This document shows positions 3,288 to 63,675 of a stretch of DNA of 64,000 bases, piece after piece. How positions within the stretch are numbered: position 1 is the first letter of the stretch; each line of letters opens with the position of its first letter. This DNA comes from a virus. The stretch lies in the IMG/VR virus record IMGVR_UViG_3300013131_000002, positions 1 to 64,000 of that record. One strand, given 5' to 3'. Made by a program: the position numbers and the translations under genes. A model generated the notes under the pieces. The model ran no database searches and was not told the origin of the DNA. It saw nothing but the letters and a program-made list of their open reading frames with translations.

Positions 3288-3569
3288 TTAGTTAGTTACT
3301 ACCCCAAGTACTGCCATTGATTCGTTGATCATAACATAATCAGATCCTTCGAGTTCAATGATTACCCCGTCACTTGCAGGGTGAATGTATACGATATCCC
3401 CAACTTTGCATTTACAGTCTGGACCTGCAGCTAATACTGGAAGTACGTTAGAACGTAATGCTGATGCTGATTTTCCACTTAGGATAATTCCTGAATCTGT
3501 TACAGTTTTGTCAGGTTTAGGGACTACCAACCAATCACGGGTTGGTTCAAAATTGATTTTCTTTTCCAT
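3288..3569 (-). CDS. groES: Co-chaperonin GroES (Cpn10)-like
   Basis: FEPTRDWLVV...TDSGIIL...VLAAGPD...KVGDIVY...IELEGSDYVMINE..VLGVV. Confidence 0.88.
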   Translation of the reverse strand: MEKKINFEPTRDWLVVPKPDKTVTDSGIILSGKSASALRSNVLPVLAAGPDCKCKVGDIVYIHPASDGVIIELEGSDYVMINESMAVLGVVTN

Positions 3570-3625: not shown

Positions 3626-4072
3626 TTACTTAACTAGTGCTATTACAGTAGTGGCAATGAATACAGTTGTTGTGAGTACAAACAATCCTGTAGTCTTTTT
3701 ATAAGTAGATAGATCTGAGTTTGTTGCTACTAGTTCAGCATTTAAGTTTTCTATATCCAGTTGCAAACTCCCAATCTTTTCAAGATTTGCTTTATCTGCA
3801 GTTTGACATTTAACATATGAATCAGTCAAAGTTTTGATAGCTAAGTCTTTATCATTCAATCTTATCTCATAAGAATTAACACTTTGTGTAAGTAGGAATT
3901 CACTTTTCTTACAAGCATCTAAATCTACCATTGCTTTTAGCAATGTTTCTTCTTGCTTAGTTGTAAAGAATACCCCGGCCTGACCGTTATAGTTAATTCT
4001 TTGGGGAGTAAGTTGTCCATAGCTGATCACGTTCATCGTTATCAGCACTAGAAATACGACCAATGACTTCAT
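3626..4072 (-). CDS. Secreted/membrane coiled-coil protein, spanin-like
   Basis: N-terminal signal (..ISYG/Q), coiled coil, C-terminal hydrophobic helix; last gene of the lysis cassette. Confidence 0.5.
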   Translation of the reverse strand: MKSLVVFLVLITMNVISYGQLTPQRINYNGQAGVFFTTKQEETLLKAMVDLDACKKSEFLLTQSVNSYEIRLNDKDLAIKTLTDSYVKCQTADKANLEKIGSLQLDIENLNAELVATNSDLSTYKKTTGLFVLTTTVFIATTVIALVK

Positions 4073-4358
4073 CTCTGTCTTTTTTTATGTTAATGATTAG
4101 GTTTGCATTTGCAAGTATCTTGTACTTGTTTATGCTATCGTTGAATGCTAAGCTGTCTATGATGTGCATTGTTTTAATTGAGTCAATTTTGAGCTCATAC
4201 AAATCTGATATTACTTTTAGCTTGGCATCTGACTTGTCTTTTTCTTCTTTGATATTTTGTATTCTAGAAGCTAGTCCTATAACTAAGACTGTAAGTACTG
4301 CACATACAACGAATACTATTCCTTGCCAGGAGATAACTTTACTGTTCTGACTGTTCAT
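3993..4358 (-). CDS. i-spanin-like membrane protein
   Basis: N-terminal TM (WQGIVFVVCAVLTVLVIGLA) plus coiled coil; follows the holin; ATG 4358 preferred over TTG 4376. Confidence 0.55.
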   Translation of the reverse strand: MNSQNSKVISWQGIVFVVCAVLTVLVIGLASRIQNIKEEKDKSDAKLKVISDLYELKIDSIKTMHIIDSLAFNDSINKYKILANANLIINIKKDRDEVIGRISSADNDERDQLWTTYSPKN

Positions 4359-4587
4359 TTTGTTTTGGTTTTCCAAATACTTTTGATACGTTTTCTACTG
4401 CTGTGAATCCCATTCCTGCTCCAGATAATATCAATAATCCATCATATATAAACTCAGGACATATGTAAATTGTGAATGTCCCCACATATGCAATGATTAT
4501 GCAGGTTAAAAGAGCCAGGGCTGACCCAACTCTCTTGAAACTTACGTCTCCCTCAGCTGAAAACATTGACTTTACCCATTTTAGCAT
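4339..4587 (-). CDS. Holin-like two-TM protein
   Basis: DVSFKRVGSALALL..., two hydrophobic helices, adjacent to the endolysin. Confidence 0.65.
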   Translation of the reverse strand: MLKWVKSMFSAEGDVSFKRVGSALALLTCIIIAYVGTFTIYICPEFIYDGLLILSGAGMGFTAVENVSKVFGKPKQNEQSEQ

Positions 4588-5132
4588 TAGAATTCTCTTA
4601 ATAGTGTATAAGTAAACAATTTTTTACCCGAATCCTCACAAGTTTTTATCAATTGATTGAACTGTTCGGGATTATTTAACACTTGGCACCCAGCTGACCA
4701 TTTGTCGATGATACTAGATATAGCAGATGGGTTAGCTCTATGAATGTTTACCCCAAACATTCCAGTATCCTCAGTCTTTGATTCTTCAGCTAAGTCATTT
4801 TTGTTGTTATCACGGTAAACAGTGATAGGTTTAGCTTGTACTAAAGCTTTGTACTGACCTTTGTGTAAACCAAGTTTCCAACTGTCGACATATTGTCCGG
4901 GTTTAAGTACTGCTGTTCCTTTTGGATTCATCAGATTTTTTAACCAGTGGGTCCCAGGATTAGTAGTACAACTATACACTGTCATGATTGGACCATTGAC
5001 TACATAAATGAAATCATCAAATTTGTTTCTTTCATTTGCTGCAGATCTAGTTCCAATTATATGAAACTTAGGCCAGTCATATCCGAGCCTAGCAAACTCT
5101 GCTTCTAGTTCTTTGTAAGTGTACTTTTTCAT
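4587..5132 (-). CDS. Endolysin with L,D-transpeptidase (YkuD)-like Cys/His motif
   Basis: TTNPG...GVNIHRAN-x-WSAGCQV; position in holin/spanin cassette. Confidence 0.7.
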   Translation of the reverse strand: MKKYTYKELEAEFARLGYDWPKFHIIGTRSAANERNKFDDFIYVVNGPIMTVYSCTTNPGTHWLKNLMNPKGTAVLKPGQYVDSWKLGLHKGQYKALVQAKPITVYRDNNKNDLAEESKTEDTGMFGVNIHRANPSAISSIIDKWSAGCQVLNNPEQFNQLIKTCEDSGKKLFTYTLLREF

Positions 5133-5374
5133 TTTGGGGTATTGTAAATTGTAAATGCAGTACCTGGGTCTGCCTCAAGCAAAGATACAAAATATTCTAA
5201 TTTACTAGTATCCTGAAAATCCTGAATCATTCGTGTATGCTCAGGTAATCCCCTTGGTGGGATTTCTTCGGTACCGGTAAGATCTTCAGATAAGATAAAT
5301 ACTATTACGTCATTACCTACAAGCACTTGAAGTTGCCAGTCCCCATTTTCTAGTTGTGTATAATTGTAATTCAT
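5129..5374 (-). CDS. Hypothetical protein (possible fibre chaperone)
   Basis: 81 aa, coupled to the fibre-like gene. Confidence 0.6.
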   Translation of the reverse strand: MNYNYTQLENGDWQLQVLVGNDVIVFILSEDLTGTEEIPPRGLPEHTRMIQDFQDTSKLEYFVSLLEADPGTAFTIYNTPK

Positions 5375-6621
5375 TAGCTTAACGAGAAATTAAATGAAAC
5401 AGTAGTGATTTGTGCTGATGTAGCACCTCCTACCACGTTAGGATTTTTTGCTATGCAGTACAATCTATCTCCATTTGAAAATGATACAGTTGTACCATCA
5501 TCCGTTGCATATACTCCAGCGGCACTACCTGCAGCAATAGTAACTTTAGCGCCTAAAACGGATGCCGTTGCATTAGCTACATAAACTTGAAGACTGTTTG
5601 TTGCTGGGTTAGCAGACCTTGTTATTACTCTCATTTTGCTTGCTACTCCAGCAGGCATTGGGTACCCGGGCATAAAAGCAGCTGCCGCACTACCATAATC
5701 ACCTGCTGTAACAGCTACGGTAGCTACTGGTGTACCCCCTAAATAAATTGAACCTCTAGCCCCGTTTGTGATACCCGCTCCGTTAGCATTTCCAACAAAG
5801 ACAGTAGTATTTGAAGTTTGATAAGTATTTGTATCTAAAGCAAATGTACCCGCAGCAGTCATTTTTACAAAAGGCGTGCCCGATACCCAAGCAGGATAGT
5901 TAACAGCTGCCCACGTCCCTAGTGTTGGAGTCCCTGTAAGTTTACTATAAGCTAAACTTGTAAGCCAAGAAGGGTCAGCATAACTACCTGAACTTAATAA
6001 ATCTCCAACAGTCCAGGATCTATCTGCTGATAAATCGTAGCTTGTGCCGTTAATATTAAGAGTTCTTGATGTTGGAACATAGCCTGTTAAAGACGCTGAT
6101 GTAATATACCCTGATGGGTTTGTTAGTGGATAGTAAGTAGCAGCAGCAGTAGCTGAAGTTAAGTATGGAAGTAATGCTGCTGAAGTAATATAACCTGCAG
6201 GATTAGTAGCATCGTACTTTGCATTAAGAGCTGTTTGTAAGTCTGTCTGTGACGACAGTGTCCCAGTAATTGACCCCCAAATTGATGAGCCTCCTCCACC
6301 AGTAGCATTGATTGTTACATCCCCAGTAGATTGATCGATTGTCACGTTAGTCCCAGCAATGATGCTAGTCACTCCAGTGTTTGCAATTGTAATACTACCA
6401 TCAATCTCTGTAACTCCAATCCCTGTTCCAGCCAGTACAAAGGATGATAAGTATTTGAAGCTGAAGGTCTTTGCTTGTTGAGATTTTACATAAGACACAA
6501 GCACTTGCCCATGTCTTATGTTATCATACCTAAGTGTAGACCCATCAGATTCATCTACATCAACTAATTGCCGTAAGCTGATATTAGACTTTACAGTTTT
6601 ATTAGTTGAGAATTTTGTCAT
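5374..6621 (-). CDS. Tail fibre/structural protein
   Basis: G/T/S/A-rich; GVTSIIAGTNVTI, WGSITGTLSSQTDLQTALNAK, duplicated TNPxGYITSA, VPTSRTLNING motifs typical of phage fibres. Confidence 0.7.
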   Translation of the reverse strand: MTKFSTNKTVKSNISLRQLVDVDESDGSTLRYDNIRHGQVLVSYVKSQQAKTFSFKYLSSFVLAGTGIGVTEIDGSITIANTGVTSIIAGTNVTIDQSTGDVTINATGGGGSSIWGSITGTLSSQTDLQTALNAKYDATNPAGYITSAALLPYLTSATAAATYYPLTNPSGYITSASLTGYVPTSRTLNINGTSYDLSADRSWTVGDLLSSGSYADPSWLTSLAYSKLTGTPTLGTWAAVNYPAWVSGTPFVKMTAAGTFALDTNTYQTSNTTVFVGNANGAGITNGARGSIYLGGTPVATVAVTAGDYGSAAAAFMPGYPMPAGVASKMRVITRSANPATNSLQVYVANATASVLGAKVTIAAGSAAGVYATDDGTTVSFSNGDRLYCIAKNPNVVGGATSAQITTVSFNFSLS

Positions 6622-7169
6622 TATCTAACTTTGTCTACTTCTAAACTGATAGCAGCAATTGCTGGATAAGGGGCAGTTGCAGCAAGTGTTCTAATTTGCA
6701 TATCTGTAGAATTAGCTGCATACTGTAATCCAATTCTAACATTTTCAGTAGTTGTAACAATATGAGAATGTAAAGTCATAATCCCAATCTGACTTGATAT
6801 TGCTAATGAAAGTACATTAGCAGTATAGTCTTGAGCTACTCCATTAACATGTAACCATGCAGTTAGAGATCCTTCAGTTGTTGTATTGTTTTTAAAGATC
6901 TGAAGAGTAAAGTCAAAACTGTAAGTTCCAGGATTTACTACTACAATAGTATTAGATGCATAGTACACCCCTTCTGCATATGTTGTAGTAGGAGTTGGGG
7001 CTACATAAGCAGTATTAATTGCAGCAGTAGTAAGAGTAGTGGTATTTAGAAAAGATCCACCAACATTGATTTCGTTTACTATAGCGTTTAGATGTCCAAC
7101 TTTTGCTGGTAGATTATCAGCTCCTAAAAAGTTAGAGTAGTAATTGTCACGAATAAGTGAGATAGCCAT
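6621..7169 (-). CDS. Structural beta-sandwich protein (C1q/BclA-C-like)
   Basis: IVVVNPGTYSFDFTLQI...AWLHVNG pattern. Confidence 0.5.
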   Translation of the reverse strand: MAISLIRDNYYSNFLGADNLPAKVGHLNAIVNEINVGGSFLNTTTLTTAAINTAYVAPTPTTTYAEGVYYASNTIVVVNPGTYSFDFTLQIFKNNTTTEGSLTAWLHVNGVAQDYTANVLSLAISSQIGIMTLHSHIVTTTENVRIGLQYAANSTDMQIRTLAATAPYPAIAAISLEVDKVR

Positions 7170-7181
7170 TTTTGTATAATT

Positions 7182-7409
7182 TTAATTAAGTTTACTTCTA
7201 GCTTGAATGTACAAGTGTGACTTCTCCTGTTCTGCAGCCATAATGGCCATGATTCCTCTAAGTTCTTCATACGTAAATTGTATAACTAACTTATCTTCAT
7301 GATCTACCATTTGGATAACAGCTTCGTCAATATACACTACAGCCTGCTCTCCATCATCCTCTTTACTAAATGGAGGTTGATAAATTCCAGTTTTAATGTA
7401 AGTTGGCAT
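7182..7409 (-). CDS. Hypothetical protein
   Basis: 75-aa ORF with an upstream TATCTTTG element. Confidence 0.7.
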   Translation of the reverse strand: MPTYIKTGIYQPPFSKEDDGEQAVVYIDEAVIQMVDHEDKLVIQFTYEELRGIMAIMAAEQEKSHLYIQARSKLN

Positions 7410-7427
7410 TCAAGTCTAATTTGATAT

Positions 7428-7435
7428 CAAAGATA
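7428..7435 (-). promoter_or_regulatory. -7 promoter element TATCTTTG
   Basis: TAnnTTTG consensus 19 nt upstream of the 7409 start. Confidence 0.6.
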
Positions 7436-7483
7436 GTCAAATTCTTAGACATACCTATCCCCTTCGATTGTTTTTTGTTTCAA

Positions 7484-7690
7484 ATTGACCTTCAGAGTAC
7501 TGCCGTCTTTAGCCTTCGGAGGAACATTTCTGTCAGCCTATAGTTTTAACCCTCCCCAGTATCCTATATCAATCCCATTTTTGCAACTATCGGGGACAAC
7601 TTTCTCTAGCTATGTTGCTAGAAATAGAACCCGACTTCTGACCCCCTATCTTGGTTACCTCAGGGGTGATCGTTTGGATTACGGTTGCAG
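7484..7690 (-). ncRNA. Candidate structured ncRNA (two multi-stem domains)
   Basis: No minus-strand ORF in the track; nested stems TGCAAC/GTTGCA, CCCCTG/TAGGGG, TCGGG/CCCGA, TCTAGC/GCTAGA, ATTGAT/GTCAAT, TACTG/CAGTA, GGAGGG/TCCTCC; own -7 element just upstream. Confidence 0.55.
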
Positions 7691-7693
7691 AGA

Positions 7694-7701
7694 CAAAGAT
7701 A
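7694..7701 (-). promoter_or_regulatory. -7 promoter element TATCTTTG facing the ncRNA candidate
   Basis: TAnnTTTG match right after the stop of the 44-aa peptide. Confidence 0.6.
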
Positions 7702-7710
7702 GCAAATTAC

Positions 7711-7845
7711 TTACCCTTGTCCAACTGAAAGTTTTGTATAATGCTTTGAAGTTTTTAACTTCGAGTGCTTCTTCTTACTGTGAACCCCTGGACGTTTCTT
7801 CTTCGGGGTGGGTTTGAAGTTAGTGTTAGTCTGAACTTTTGCCAT
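7711..7845 (-). CDS. 44-aa highly basic peptide (not in ORF track)
   Basis: MAKVQTNTNFKPTPKKKRPGVHSKKKHSKLKTSKHYTKLSVGQG. Confidence 0.7.
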   Translation of the reverse strand: MAKVQTNTNFKPTPKKKRPGVHSKKKHSKLKTSKHYTKLSVGQG

Positions 7846-7851
7846 TGTTAG

Positions 7852-8016
7852 TTAGTGTTTTTCAAGTGTTAATCTAAGTGAGATCGAGTACAAGTACAAA
7901 CTTATGTACAACTCCCACCAAAGTTTATCTTTTGGACGAACAAACTTAAAATCTACCCCAATCCTGTTGGTGATCTTCATTCGTCTCTTGGTTCCTCTTA
8001 CCTTTAATCTTTTCAT
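7852..8016 (-). CDS. 54-aa hypothetical protein (not in ORF track)
   Basis: MKRLKVRGTKRRMKITNRIGVDFKFVRPKDKLWWELYISLYLYSISLRLTLEKH; tightly packed between neighbours. Confidence 0.55.
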   Translation of the reverse strand: MKRLKVRGTKRRMKITNRIGVDFKFVRPKDKLWWELYISLYLYSISLRLTLEKH

Positions 8017-8028
8017 CTTATTCTGTAT

Positions 8029-8181
8029 TTAGCTTCCACAATAAAGACAACCCTCATCGTCGTCGTCATAGTATCCACTGGTTATCTTTTCTACTTCTTC
8101 ACTGACTTGTGCATTAGTCCATGTAGGGTTTTTCATCTTAATCTGAACCCTTAAAAAGTGGTGTTGTTCTAAACTATTCAT
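8029..8181 (-). CDS. 50-aa peptide ending in acidic CxxCGS (not in ORF track)
   Basis: MNSLEQHHFLRVQIKMKNPTWTNAQVSEEVEKITSGYYDDDDEGCLYCGS; TATATTTG immediately upstream; alternative start at 8136. Confidence 0.65.
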   Translation of the reverse strand: MNSLEQHHFLRVQIKMKNPTWTNAQVSEEVEKITSGYYDDDDEGCLYCGS

Positions 8182-8186
8182 CGTAA

Positions 8187-8194
8187 CAAATATA
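8187..8194 (-). promoter_or_regulatory. -7 promoter element TATATTTG heading the leftward block, inside the inverted repeat GTAACAA-N14-TTGTTAC (8183-8210)
   Basis: Consensus match 5 nt before ATG 8181. Confidence 0.65.
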
Positions 8195-11498: not shown

Positions 11499-11513
11499 TA
11501 GTTGAAGGTTAAT

Positions 11514-11700
11514 ATTACACCATACTTGACCACGTAGAGTCTTAACTTACTCGTGATGCTAACTACACAGTTTAGTAGAGTAAGAGTATGTGTGTAATTA
11601 CTTCTGTGCAGAGCAAACCAAGGGTTGTAACCTTGCAGAAGTACAACAGTATGTAATCTGTTTGCTTAAGAGGTTAAGTATAATTAAACCTAGGGGTTTA
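11514..11700 (+). ncRNA. Candidate structured RNA / 3' UTR with pseudoknot
   Basis: ATTACAC-CATACT/AGTATG-T-GTGTAAT; TACTTCTG/CAGAAGTA; CAAGG/CCTTG; bulge AGCAAAC complementary to downstream GTTTGCT. Confidence 0.5.
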
Positions 11701-11701
11701 G

Positions 11702-11759
11702 AAAAGGGTCTGAGAGTAACTAATGCTGAAAAGAATTAGTATCTCAGCCCTTTTTTTTT
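11702..11759 (+). terminator. Long-stem terminator
   Basis: AAAAGGG..CTGAGA..ACTAAT / ATTAGT..TCTCAG.CCC-T9. Confidence 0.8.
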
Positions 11760-11790
11760 ATTTTGTAATCAATCTAAAACTATAATAAAA

Positions 11791-11940
11791 ATGGAAGAAC
11801 CAATTCACAGCGATGTGCTATCAGCAGTTATAAAGCACATAATATCTAATGCTGGTATAACTGATAAGTTAATTATTGATACTTTTGCTTTAGGCTTTAT
11901 AGCAGGAGTTAGATTTGTAGAAAATTCTCAAGCACAATAA
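11791..11940 (+). CDS. 49-aa hypothetical protein (not in ORF track)
   Basis: MEEPIHSDVLSAVIKHIISNAGITDKLIIDTFALGFIAGVRFVENSQAQ; A-rich leader. Confidence 0.6.
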   Translation: MEEPIHSDVLSAVIKHIISNAGITDKLIIDTFALGFIAGVRFVENSQAQ

Positions 11941-49312: not shown

Positions 49313-49320
49313 CAAATTTA
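49313..49320 (-). promoter_or_regulatory. -7 element TAAATTTG
   Basis: TAnnTTTG 8 nt upstream of the 49305 start. Confidence 0.55.
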
Positions 49321-63667: not shown

Positions 63668-63675
63668 CAAAATTA
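63668..63675 (-). promoter_or_regulatory. -7 element TAATTTTG
   Basis: TAnnTTTG 5 nt upstream of the 63662 start. Confidence 0.55.

Follow-up and report, generated by a model that had tools for sequence, protein, structure and literature searches.

Evidence for a conserved structured RNA of about 250 nt in a crAss-like lineage of Bacteroidota phages

What is made from an ORF-free stretch that lies behind a promoter-like box in the leftward gene block of a lake phage, and what could it do there? The stretch belongs to a window of 64,000 nucleotides, the whole length of DNA analyzed here, which represents the first 64 kb of a 78,251-bp IMG/VR record from lake water. The first and last 123 bases of this record are identical, forming short direct terminal repeats, and its DNA polymerase is nearest to those of crAss-like phages (27-33% identity). 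Replication genes occupy a plus-strand block, and the leftward block around the locus carries a tail-protein-like gene and an endolysin-like gene. Few viruses of Bacteroidota are as abundant as the crAss-like phages. We know of no account of how they switch on their late and lysis genes, and of no structured regulatory RNA described for them. The original prediction, made from the letters of the window, proposed that a promoter-driven, structured RNA of ~205 nt is encoded at this locus. The comparative analysis indicates that the minus strand at approximately 7692-7443 almost certainly encodes a genuine, evolutionarily constrained structured RNA of ~250 nt.

Homologues and distribution

We used the 75-aa protein encoded downstream of the stretch as a query and retrieved 36 viral loci. 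Fifteen of these loci have the same order, in which a small peptide gene is followed by a gap of ~300 nt without an ORF and then by the 75-aa gene. The alignment of the 15 gaps has a mean column identity of 79%, with long invariant blocks and visibly compensatory stems, and RNAalifold detected double changes in 13 of 59 pairs. For a wider search, a gapped pattern was constructed from two invariant blocks and run over three collections. The pattern matched 41 viral contigs, 71 metagenome contigs from fresh and marine water, and two contigs among 185,579 species-representative prokaryote genomes, one of 81.6 kb that resembles a phage genome and contains the whole locus, and another of 3.3 kb with the same locus. 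After deduplication, 88 distinct copies of the RNA remained, 69 of them full length. Fifty-eight columns are invariant across the full-length sequences, and within clade I the RNA equals or exceeds the flanking genes in conservation (nucleotide identity of 0.91 versus 0.76-0.80). As had been predicted, the region is enriched in GC (0.455 at 7500-7699 compared to 0.33-0.385 in the flanks) and its sense strand is free of ORFs, with the longest stop-free run having a median of 37 codons across 69 homologues.

Six near-complete genomes of this lineage, 76-88 kb in size, contain exactly one copy of the RNA each. Among the six is the marine genome G013, which has a core genome in common with the window at 40-80% protein identity. 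Throughout this lineage of crAss-like Bacteroidota phages, found in fresh and marine water, the RNA is a core element present once per genome. Five larger phages have the 75-aa gene but lack the RNA, and four of the five also carry the peptide gene. Two of the five were compared with the window gene by gene and proved to belong to a different lineage, with only a mosaic tail-fiber and lysis cassette (Table 1) in common. Because the RNA-less phages represent a different lineage that shares only this cassette, the comparison of genomes with and without the RNA was uninformative with respect to a partner protein. The cassette itself is missing from G013 and is common to otherwise unrelated phages of 114-119 kb, whose endolysin-like proteins are 75-80% identical to that of the window.

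Two other features of the window were compared with related genomes. A second structured-RNA candidate lies at 11514-11759 on the plus strand, and BLAST of 11500-11800 found no counterpart in G013, G001 or G002; this candidate, if real, is therefore less widely conserved than the ~250-nt RNA. A 93-aa protein encoded at 3288-3569 (minus strand) matches a PHROG family of GroES-like co-chaperonins (phrog_3188, E = 1.4e-9) and is conserved in G013.

Covariance model R1 matches the window at 7579-7692 with 108 bits, and model R2 matches 7443-7583 with 132 bits. A scan of 150 other Bacteroidia genomes with R1 produced one weak match of 33.7 bits. On inspection, this match proved to be a divergent copy of full length that retains the junction strings, the ACAUA loop, the AAAAUGG linker and the AAGGGG..UAUCU tail. 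The copy lies within a block of ~1.4 kb that is present in 5 of the 58 genomes from one Bacteroidia family, with small genes following, including one for an HTH_17 protein. The site of insertion differs, with sodA adjacent in one genome and gapA in another, so the block probably represents a small mobile element. In a viral outlier, L133, the RNA is followed by a hairpin and a run of six U, then by a PhoH-like gene 15 nt farther on. These divergent copies in other Bacteroidota mobile elements suggest that the RNA family has a wider distribution; looser DNA patterns for the divergent branch retrieved nothing new from IMG/VR.

Table 1. Coordinates of the RNA, its parts and neighboring features. 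Positions are those of the window except where another contig is named.
Feature	Position	Strand	Description
Box before RNA	7694-7701	minus	TATCTTTG, Bacteroidota-type -7 box TAnnTTTG, 4-5 nt upstream of P1; presumed promoter of the RNA
Domain 1	7582-7689	minus	four-way junction closed by TGCAAC/GTTGCA; 24 pairs; R1 match
P1 (domain 1)	7689-7684 with 7587-7582	minus	TGCAAC/GTTGCA
P2 hairpin (domain 1)	7683-7671	minus	CCGT..ACG
P3 (domain 1)	7667-7662 with 7646-7641	minus	ACCCCT/GGGGGT; conserved loop bases GAGG and AAGU
P4 (domain 1)	7635-7630 with 7594-7589	minus	GTCGGG/CCCGAT; internal loop; variable extension with conserved ACAUAG cap loop
Domain 2	7482-7575	minus	long irregular hairpin of three stacked helices; 21 pairs in model-fitted alignment
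P5 (domain 2)	7575-7569 with 7488-7482	minus	
P6 (domain 2)	7564-7557 with 7502-7494	minus	
P7 (domain 2)	7555-7551 with 7522-7518	minus	
Unpaired strand	7503-7517	minus	near-invariant 15-nt GAAGGCUAAAGACGG between P7 and P6, opposite a single G; core AGGCUnAAnACG in all clades
Linker, tail and hairpin	7443-7481	minus	A-rich linker, invariant tail AAGGGGAUA (7464-7456), small hairpin of GGAUA-NNNN-UAUCY type; R2 match
Box after RNA	7428-7435	minus	second TATCTTTG, 18 nt before the ATG of the 75-aa gene; presumed own promoter of that gene
44-aa Lys-rich peptide gene	7711-7845	minus	..RPG[IV]HxKxKxSxxKxSKxYxKxxxGQG; conserved upstream neighbor
75-aa gene	7182-7409	minus	first gene downstream; part of cassette
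Tail-fiber and lysis cassette	3626-7409	minus	mosaic
Endolysin-like gene	4587-5132		within cassette
Divergent RNA relative in the ~1.4-kb Bacteroidia block	L369 1501-1790 (G118:C3:37306-37606); L379 about 9907-10211		

Fold, covariation and coding potential

The RNA consists of two domains and an invariant tail. All seven helices named in the original prediction (TGCAAC/GTTGCA, CCCCT/AGGGG, TCGGG/CCCGA, TCTAGC-AACATA-GCTAGA, TTGAT/GTCAA, TACTG/CAGTA and GGAGG/CCTCC) were recovered by the RNAalifold consensus fold of 15 homologues and by independent folds of each clade. The same consensus contains many G-U pairs that are possible only on the minus strand, in agreement with the strand assignment made from such pairs earlier. 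Two aspects of the prediction had to be revised. The element is ~250 nt rather than ~205 nt, because it extends ~45 nt farther on the 3' side, past 7484, and domain 1 is not a three-way junction, because the P2 hairpin makes it a four-way junction.

The junction strands GAUC and CAGAA of domain 1 are invariant, and a distal AAC/GUU helix closes a 17-nt loop in domain 2. The unpaired strand GAAGGCUAAAGACGG is likely to be a contact for tertiary structure, a ligand or a protein, as judged from its near-invariance. The GGGG of the tail is invariant in 69 of 69 sequences, and a U-rich run follows the tail hairpin in some clades only (clades III and IV, and L133).

Covariation among homologues, which had been proposed as a check on the predicted RNA, is abundant in both domains. 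The 24 pairs of domain 1 have a covariation score of 0.343, compared to 0.127 ± 0.007 for shuffled controls, none of which scored as high (0/500). In this MAFFT alignment of 60 sequences, 94.2% of cells are paired and partners slid out of register score at most 0.082; P1 and P2 have three or four pair types at each position. The 21 pairs of domain 2 score 0.498 versus 0.174 ± 0.010 when shuffled (0/500 as high) in an alignment of 61 distinct sequences that was fitted to the model and leans towards it. Here, 93.4% of cells are paired, slid partners score at most 0.127, and 16 pairs are changed on both sides. Minimum-energy folds made independently for each clade have the same P5-P6-P7 architecture. 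Taken singly, the sequence does not fold with a better energy than shuffled sequences (z = +0.45 for the sense and -0.49 for the antisense strand), and the case for the RNA therefore rests on strong comparative evidence and not on stability.

Three additional pairings were considered and rejected. For CCGU-A-AGCC with GGCU-AAAG-ACGG, the P2 strand changes in concert with its partner in the hairpin and the ACGG never changes. The pairing of AACUAU with AUAGUU shows no compensatory change where P1 changes (clades IV and V), and that of UCCCCA with UGGGGA is absent from clade V, in which the segment is deleted. An all-against-all search for covarying pairs yielded no credible pseudoknot, as clade-defining substitutions swamp the signal.

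The original prediction had itself named an antisense ORF (7485-7817, 110 aa) as a way in which the sequence might be explained without an RNA. The conserved stretch could thus represent a protein gene on the opposite strand, or else a DNA-level element such as an origin or a packaging site. The antisense frame is indeed open for 84 codons in the window, compared to 53.6 ± 14.8 in shuffled sequences (51 of 1000 shuffles reach this length), and the open run has a median of 75 codons across homologues. However, much of this length is expected because the sense strand is purine-rich. Variable columns are spread evenly over the antisense codon positions (19, 16 and 20), showing no codon periodicity, and the frame is not conserved: 10 of 69 homologues have fewer than 50 open codons, and 1- and 2-nt indels occur within the frame. 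Moreover, the 110-aa product has no match in Pfam or PHROG. The compensatory changes and strand-specific G-U pairs point instead to selection on a single-stranded, minus-sense fold, and we regard a coding or DNA-level origin of the conservation as highly improbable.

We compared the RNA with known families. The Rfam scan suggested with the original prediction (Rfam 15, 4227 models, including tRNA, tmRNA, SRP, RNase P, 6S, riboswitches, ribozymes, pRNA, GOLLD, ROOL and EAR) gave no gathering-level match in the whole window, and sub-threshold matches at 7300-7900 were at chance level (E of 1.9-5.8). Nine loci from other clades likewise had no Rfam match on the RNA. The earlier failure to match it to tRNA, tmRNA, SRP, RNase P or 6S thus holds for the Rfam models, and ARAGORN also found no tRNA or tmRNA. 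The RNA family is absent from Rfam. None of 50,697 GenBank phage records contains the RNA according to blastn with a word size of 11, and we found no description of it in the literature, including a search with its invariant strings.

Mimicry of 16S rRNA was also considered, because GAUCACC and the preceding hairpin recall the 16S 3' end. This idea was rejected: the best local alignment has a score of 20, compared to a shuffle mean of 20.5, and the 16S from the order of Bacteroidia MAG G006, which carries a near-identical phage contig, ends in GGACCACCUCCUUUCU and not in GAUCACC. Separately, a single 70-nt stretch of Bacteroidia 16S contains five words of the RNA, namely ACGATCA, TGAGGTAAC, ACCAAG, TAGGGGGTC and TGTCCCC. 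They relate 7641-7670 and 7592-7600 of the RNA to 16S positions 237-310 (L348), in the region of helices 11-12. Their pairing partners differ between the two RNAs, and the shared words are probably due to chance.

Transcription, neighboring genes and possible function

Both TATCTTTG boxes of the original prediction are present on the minus strand at their predicted positions. In the box before P1, the T, A and TTTG positions are invariant in 15 homologues. Among the 69 sequences, TAnnTTTG is kept directly before P1 in clades I-IV and is absent from marine clade V, in which the RNA lies inside an operon and P1 overlaps the stop codon of the preceding gene. With 95 matches in 64 kb, TAnnTTTG is a frequent motif in this AT-rich genome, so the weight lies on its positional conservation across clades I-IV. 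Two sequencing runs that bear an RNA-Seq label probably consist of DNA and thus say nothing on transcription from the box. Boxes of this type are also found 5-7 nt before ATG codons on the minus strand (8187-8194, 49313-49320 and 63668-63675), which suggests that many genes of the phage may be expressed from leaderless or nearly leaderless transcripts.

On the 3' side, a -7-like box follows the RNA in 49 of 60 distinct homologues, mostly 27-33 nt past the GGGG, as opposed to 30% in shuffled sequences. Given this box between the RNA and the next gene, the downstream gene can probably do without the promoter of the RNA. The three loci scanned (the window, L159 and L021) contain no canonical terminator between the RNA and the next gene, and a search for a conserved expression platform found none. 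A conserved leader peptide after the SD-like GGGG was rejected, as neither start codon nor frame is conserved and the products vary in length from 3 to 29 aa.

In every locus with flanking sequence, the tail is followed within 12-116 nt by the start of a co-oriented gene. This gene differs by clade and may encode the 75-aa protein, a 32-aa hydrophobic membrane peptide, a holin, a PhoH-like protein or one of several unknown proteins; the holin of marine G013 matches phrog_3427 (E = 5.7e-22). In the divergent settings, namely the Bacteroidia block and L133, the RNA also heads co-oriented genes.

We favor, with a probability of roughly 0.45, the reading that the RNA is a cis-acting leader that gates the expression of late or lysis genes. 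This preference is based on the finding that the RNA always precedes late and lysis genes, even where the contexts are unrelated, on the lack of a terminator, and on the operon-internal copies of clade V, which have no promoter of their own. Host RNA polymerase would start at the TAnnTTTG box a few bases before P1, and in the marine clade transcription would presumably read in from the upstream small-peptide genes. The leader could then control the passage of transcription or translation into the late genes that follow in the same orientation (holin, tail fiber and endolysin), with the folded core binding a host factor, the polymerase or a small ligand. The invariant tail may serve as the switch, either pairing with the 3' strand of P4, UUGUCCCC, or forming the small hairpin, with a U-rich run after it. 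Read from the sequence, the tail (GGGGAUAR) is complementary over 8 bp to UUGUCCCC at 7599-7592, although the chance of an 8-bp complement somewhere within 250 nt is roughly 0.1. Such pairing would exclude helix P4a. Because the tail and UUGUCCCC are both invariant and 130 nt apart, covariation has no power on the proposed switch. The -7-like box ahead of the next gene, the lack of a conserved expression platform or canonical terminator, and the clade-to-clade differences in the function of the downstream genes, unlike classical riboswitches that track one pathway, count against a cis-acting leader.

The RNA might be a sensor or catalyst that represents a new riboswitch-like or ribozyme class. 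A host signal would then time holin and lysis expression, and the GGGG tail would alternate between the P4 strand and a terminator-like hairpin. We consider a sensor or catalyst unlikely.

A stand-alone RNA that acts in trans is nearly as good an explanation as a cis-acting leader. Such an RNA could be a ribozyme, could serve as a scaffold or decoy for proteins, or could self-assemble; it would be made from its own promoter late in infection and directed at a remote host or phage target. The box directly at P1 in clades I-IV and the second box for the next gene in most homologues are in keeping with an independent transcript. The size, the two domains and the 58 invariant positions, most of them unpaired or in junctions, resemble large orphan RNAs more than simple leaders, and the downstream genes vary where the RNA does not. 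However, no terminator defines a 3' end, the clade V RNA lacks its own promoter, and comparative genomics pointed to no partner protein. Moreover, the RNA is never found at the end of an operon or facing a convergent gene among 88 loci. A trans-acting RNA is accordingly possible, but we place it after the cis-acting leader.

The 44-aa Lys-rich peptide encoded upstream had been put forward as an RNA partner. The peptide is strongly basic, with 15 invariant residues, and across all clades its gene precedes the RNA in nearly every locus where the flank is long enough. Its stop codon is 5-12 nt before the box or helix, or ~150-160 nt when a gene for an acidic ..C.NCGS peptide lies between. These features could reflect a ribonucleoprotein of RNA and peptide, or autoregulation of the peptide operon by the RNA as a 3' element. 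Against this, the peptide family is large (274 clusters at 50% identity, nearly all of 42-50 aa) and occurs in phages without the RNA, which indicates that the peptide is independent of it. Three complete phages of 104-124 kb have the peptide and no RNA detectable with R1, and their peptide gene ends an operon against convergent genes. In Flavobacterium phage immuto, which also lacks the RNA, the peptide gene (gp085, NC_055915.1 111063-111200) is overlapped by the next gene. Conversely, the divergent RNA copies in L133 and in the Bacteroidia chromosomal block have no Lys-rich peptide gene upstream. The upstream position of the peptide gene thus stands, whereas the proposed partnership is weakened: the peptide does not appear to be an obligate partner of the RNA, and their adjacency is conserved within the lineage. 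We consider a ribonucleoprotein or an autoregulatory 3' element improbable.

The peptide has no match in Pfam or NCBIfam and a weak PHROG match of unknown function. Its family extends beyond crAss-like phages to the 160-kb Flavobacterium phage immuto and a 635-kb uncultured phage. A conserved 50-aa acidic peptide is encoded at 8029-8181 on the minus strand and ends in ..CLYCGS, with homologues in L045, L074, L086, G001 and G002. It ends in ..CENCGS in the marine clade, is 41-48% identical in phages of 114-119 kb, and accompanies the Lys-rich peptide genes, with which it forms a small-peptide module.

Found from lake to ocean directly before a holin gene or a tail-fiber and lysis cassette, the RNA provides a concrete, testable handle on late-gene control.

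Comparison with known systems

The nearest analogy to the RNA is the late leader of lambdoid phages. In these phages, the PR' promoter, a '6S' leader RNA of ~194 nt, the terminator tR' and Q-dependent read-through stand at the head of the lysis genes S, R and Rz. Both systems combine a promoter, a leader of a few hundred nucleotides and co-oriented holin or lysis and virion genes directly after it, with one copy per genome. In contrast to the RNA described here, the lambda leader has no conserved, covarying multi-helix fold, and its key sites act on DNA and the paused polymerase. The phage RNA also differs in that no terminator follows it in the window, L159 or L021, a second promoter-like box is found after it, and a non-systematic search encountered no Q-like protein.

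The put elements of phage HK022 and the EAR element of the Bacillus eps operon are structured RNAs that act on their own polymerase from within or at the head of a long operon. The RNA is likewise co-oriented with such an operon and could act in the same manner, and its clade V copies resemble EAR in their operon-internal location. However, put consists of two small hairpins of ~70 nt and EAR is ~120 nt with a pseudoknot, and neither model matches the RNA.

Cobalamin, lysine and FMN riboswitches share with the RNA a multi-helix junction, invariant nucleotides in junctions and loops, a location 5' of genes and a 3' segment complementary to the core. Unlike these riboswitches, the RNA has no Rfam riboswitch match, its downstream genes do not belong to one pathway, and we detected neither a canonical terminator nor conserved sequestration of a start site. 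In addition, a second conserved domain places 140 nt between the core and the putative switch strand. By sequence and structure, the RNA falls in none of these three groups; each such test of membership failed.

GOLLD and ROOL are complex, strongly conserved RNAs of phage or prophage DNA whose biochemical function was unknown at discovery, and the phage RNA resembles them in each of these respects. Those RNAs are 500-800 nt long and present in Rfam, whereas the RNA is ~250 nt, shows no resemblance to them in sequence, and within the searches made is limited to phages and mobile elements of Bacteroidota. Whether it acts as a leader, as a sensor or in trans, the few large conserved RNAs described from phages are joined here by a new class.
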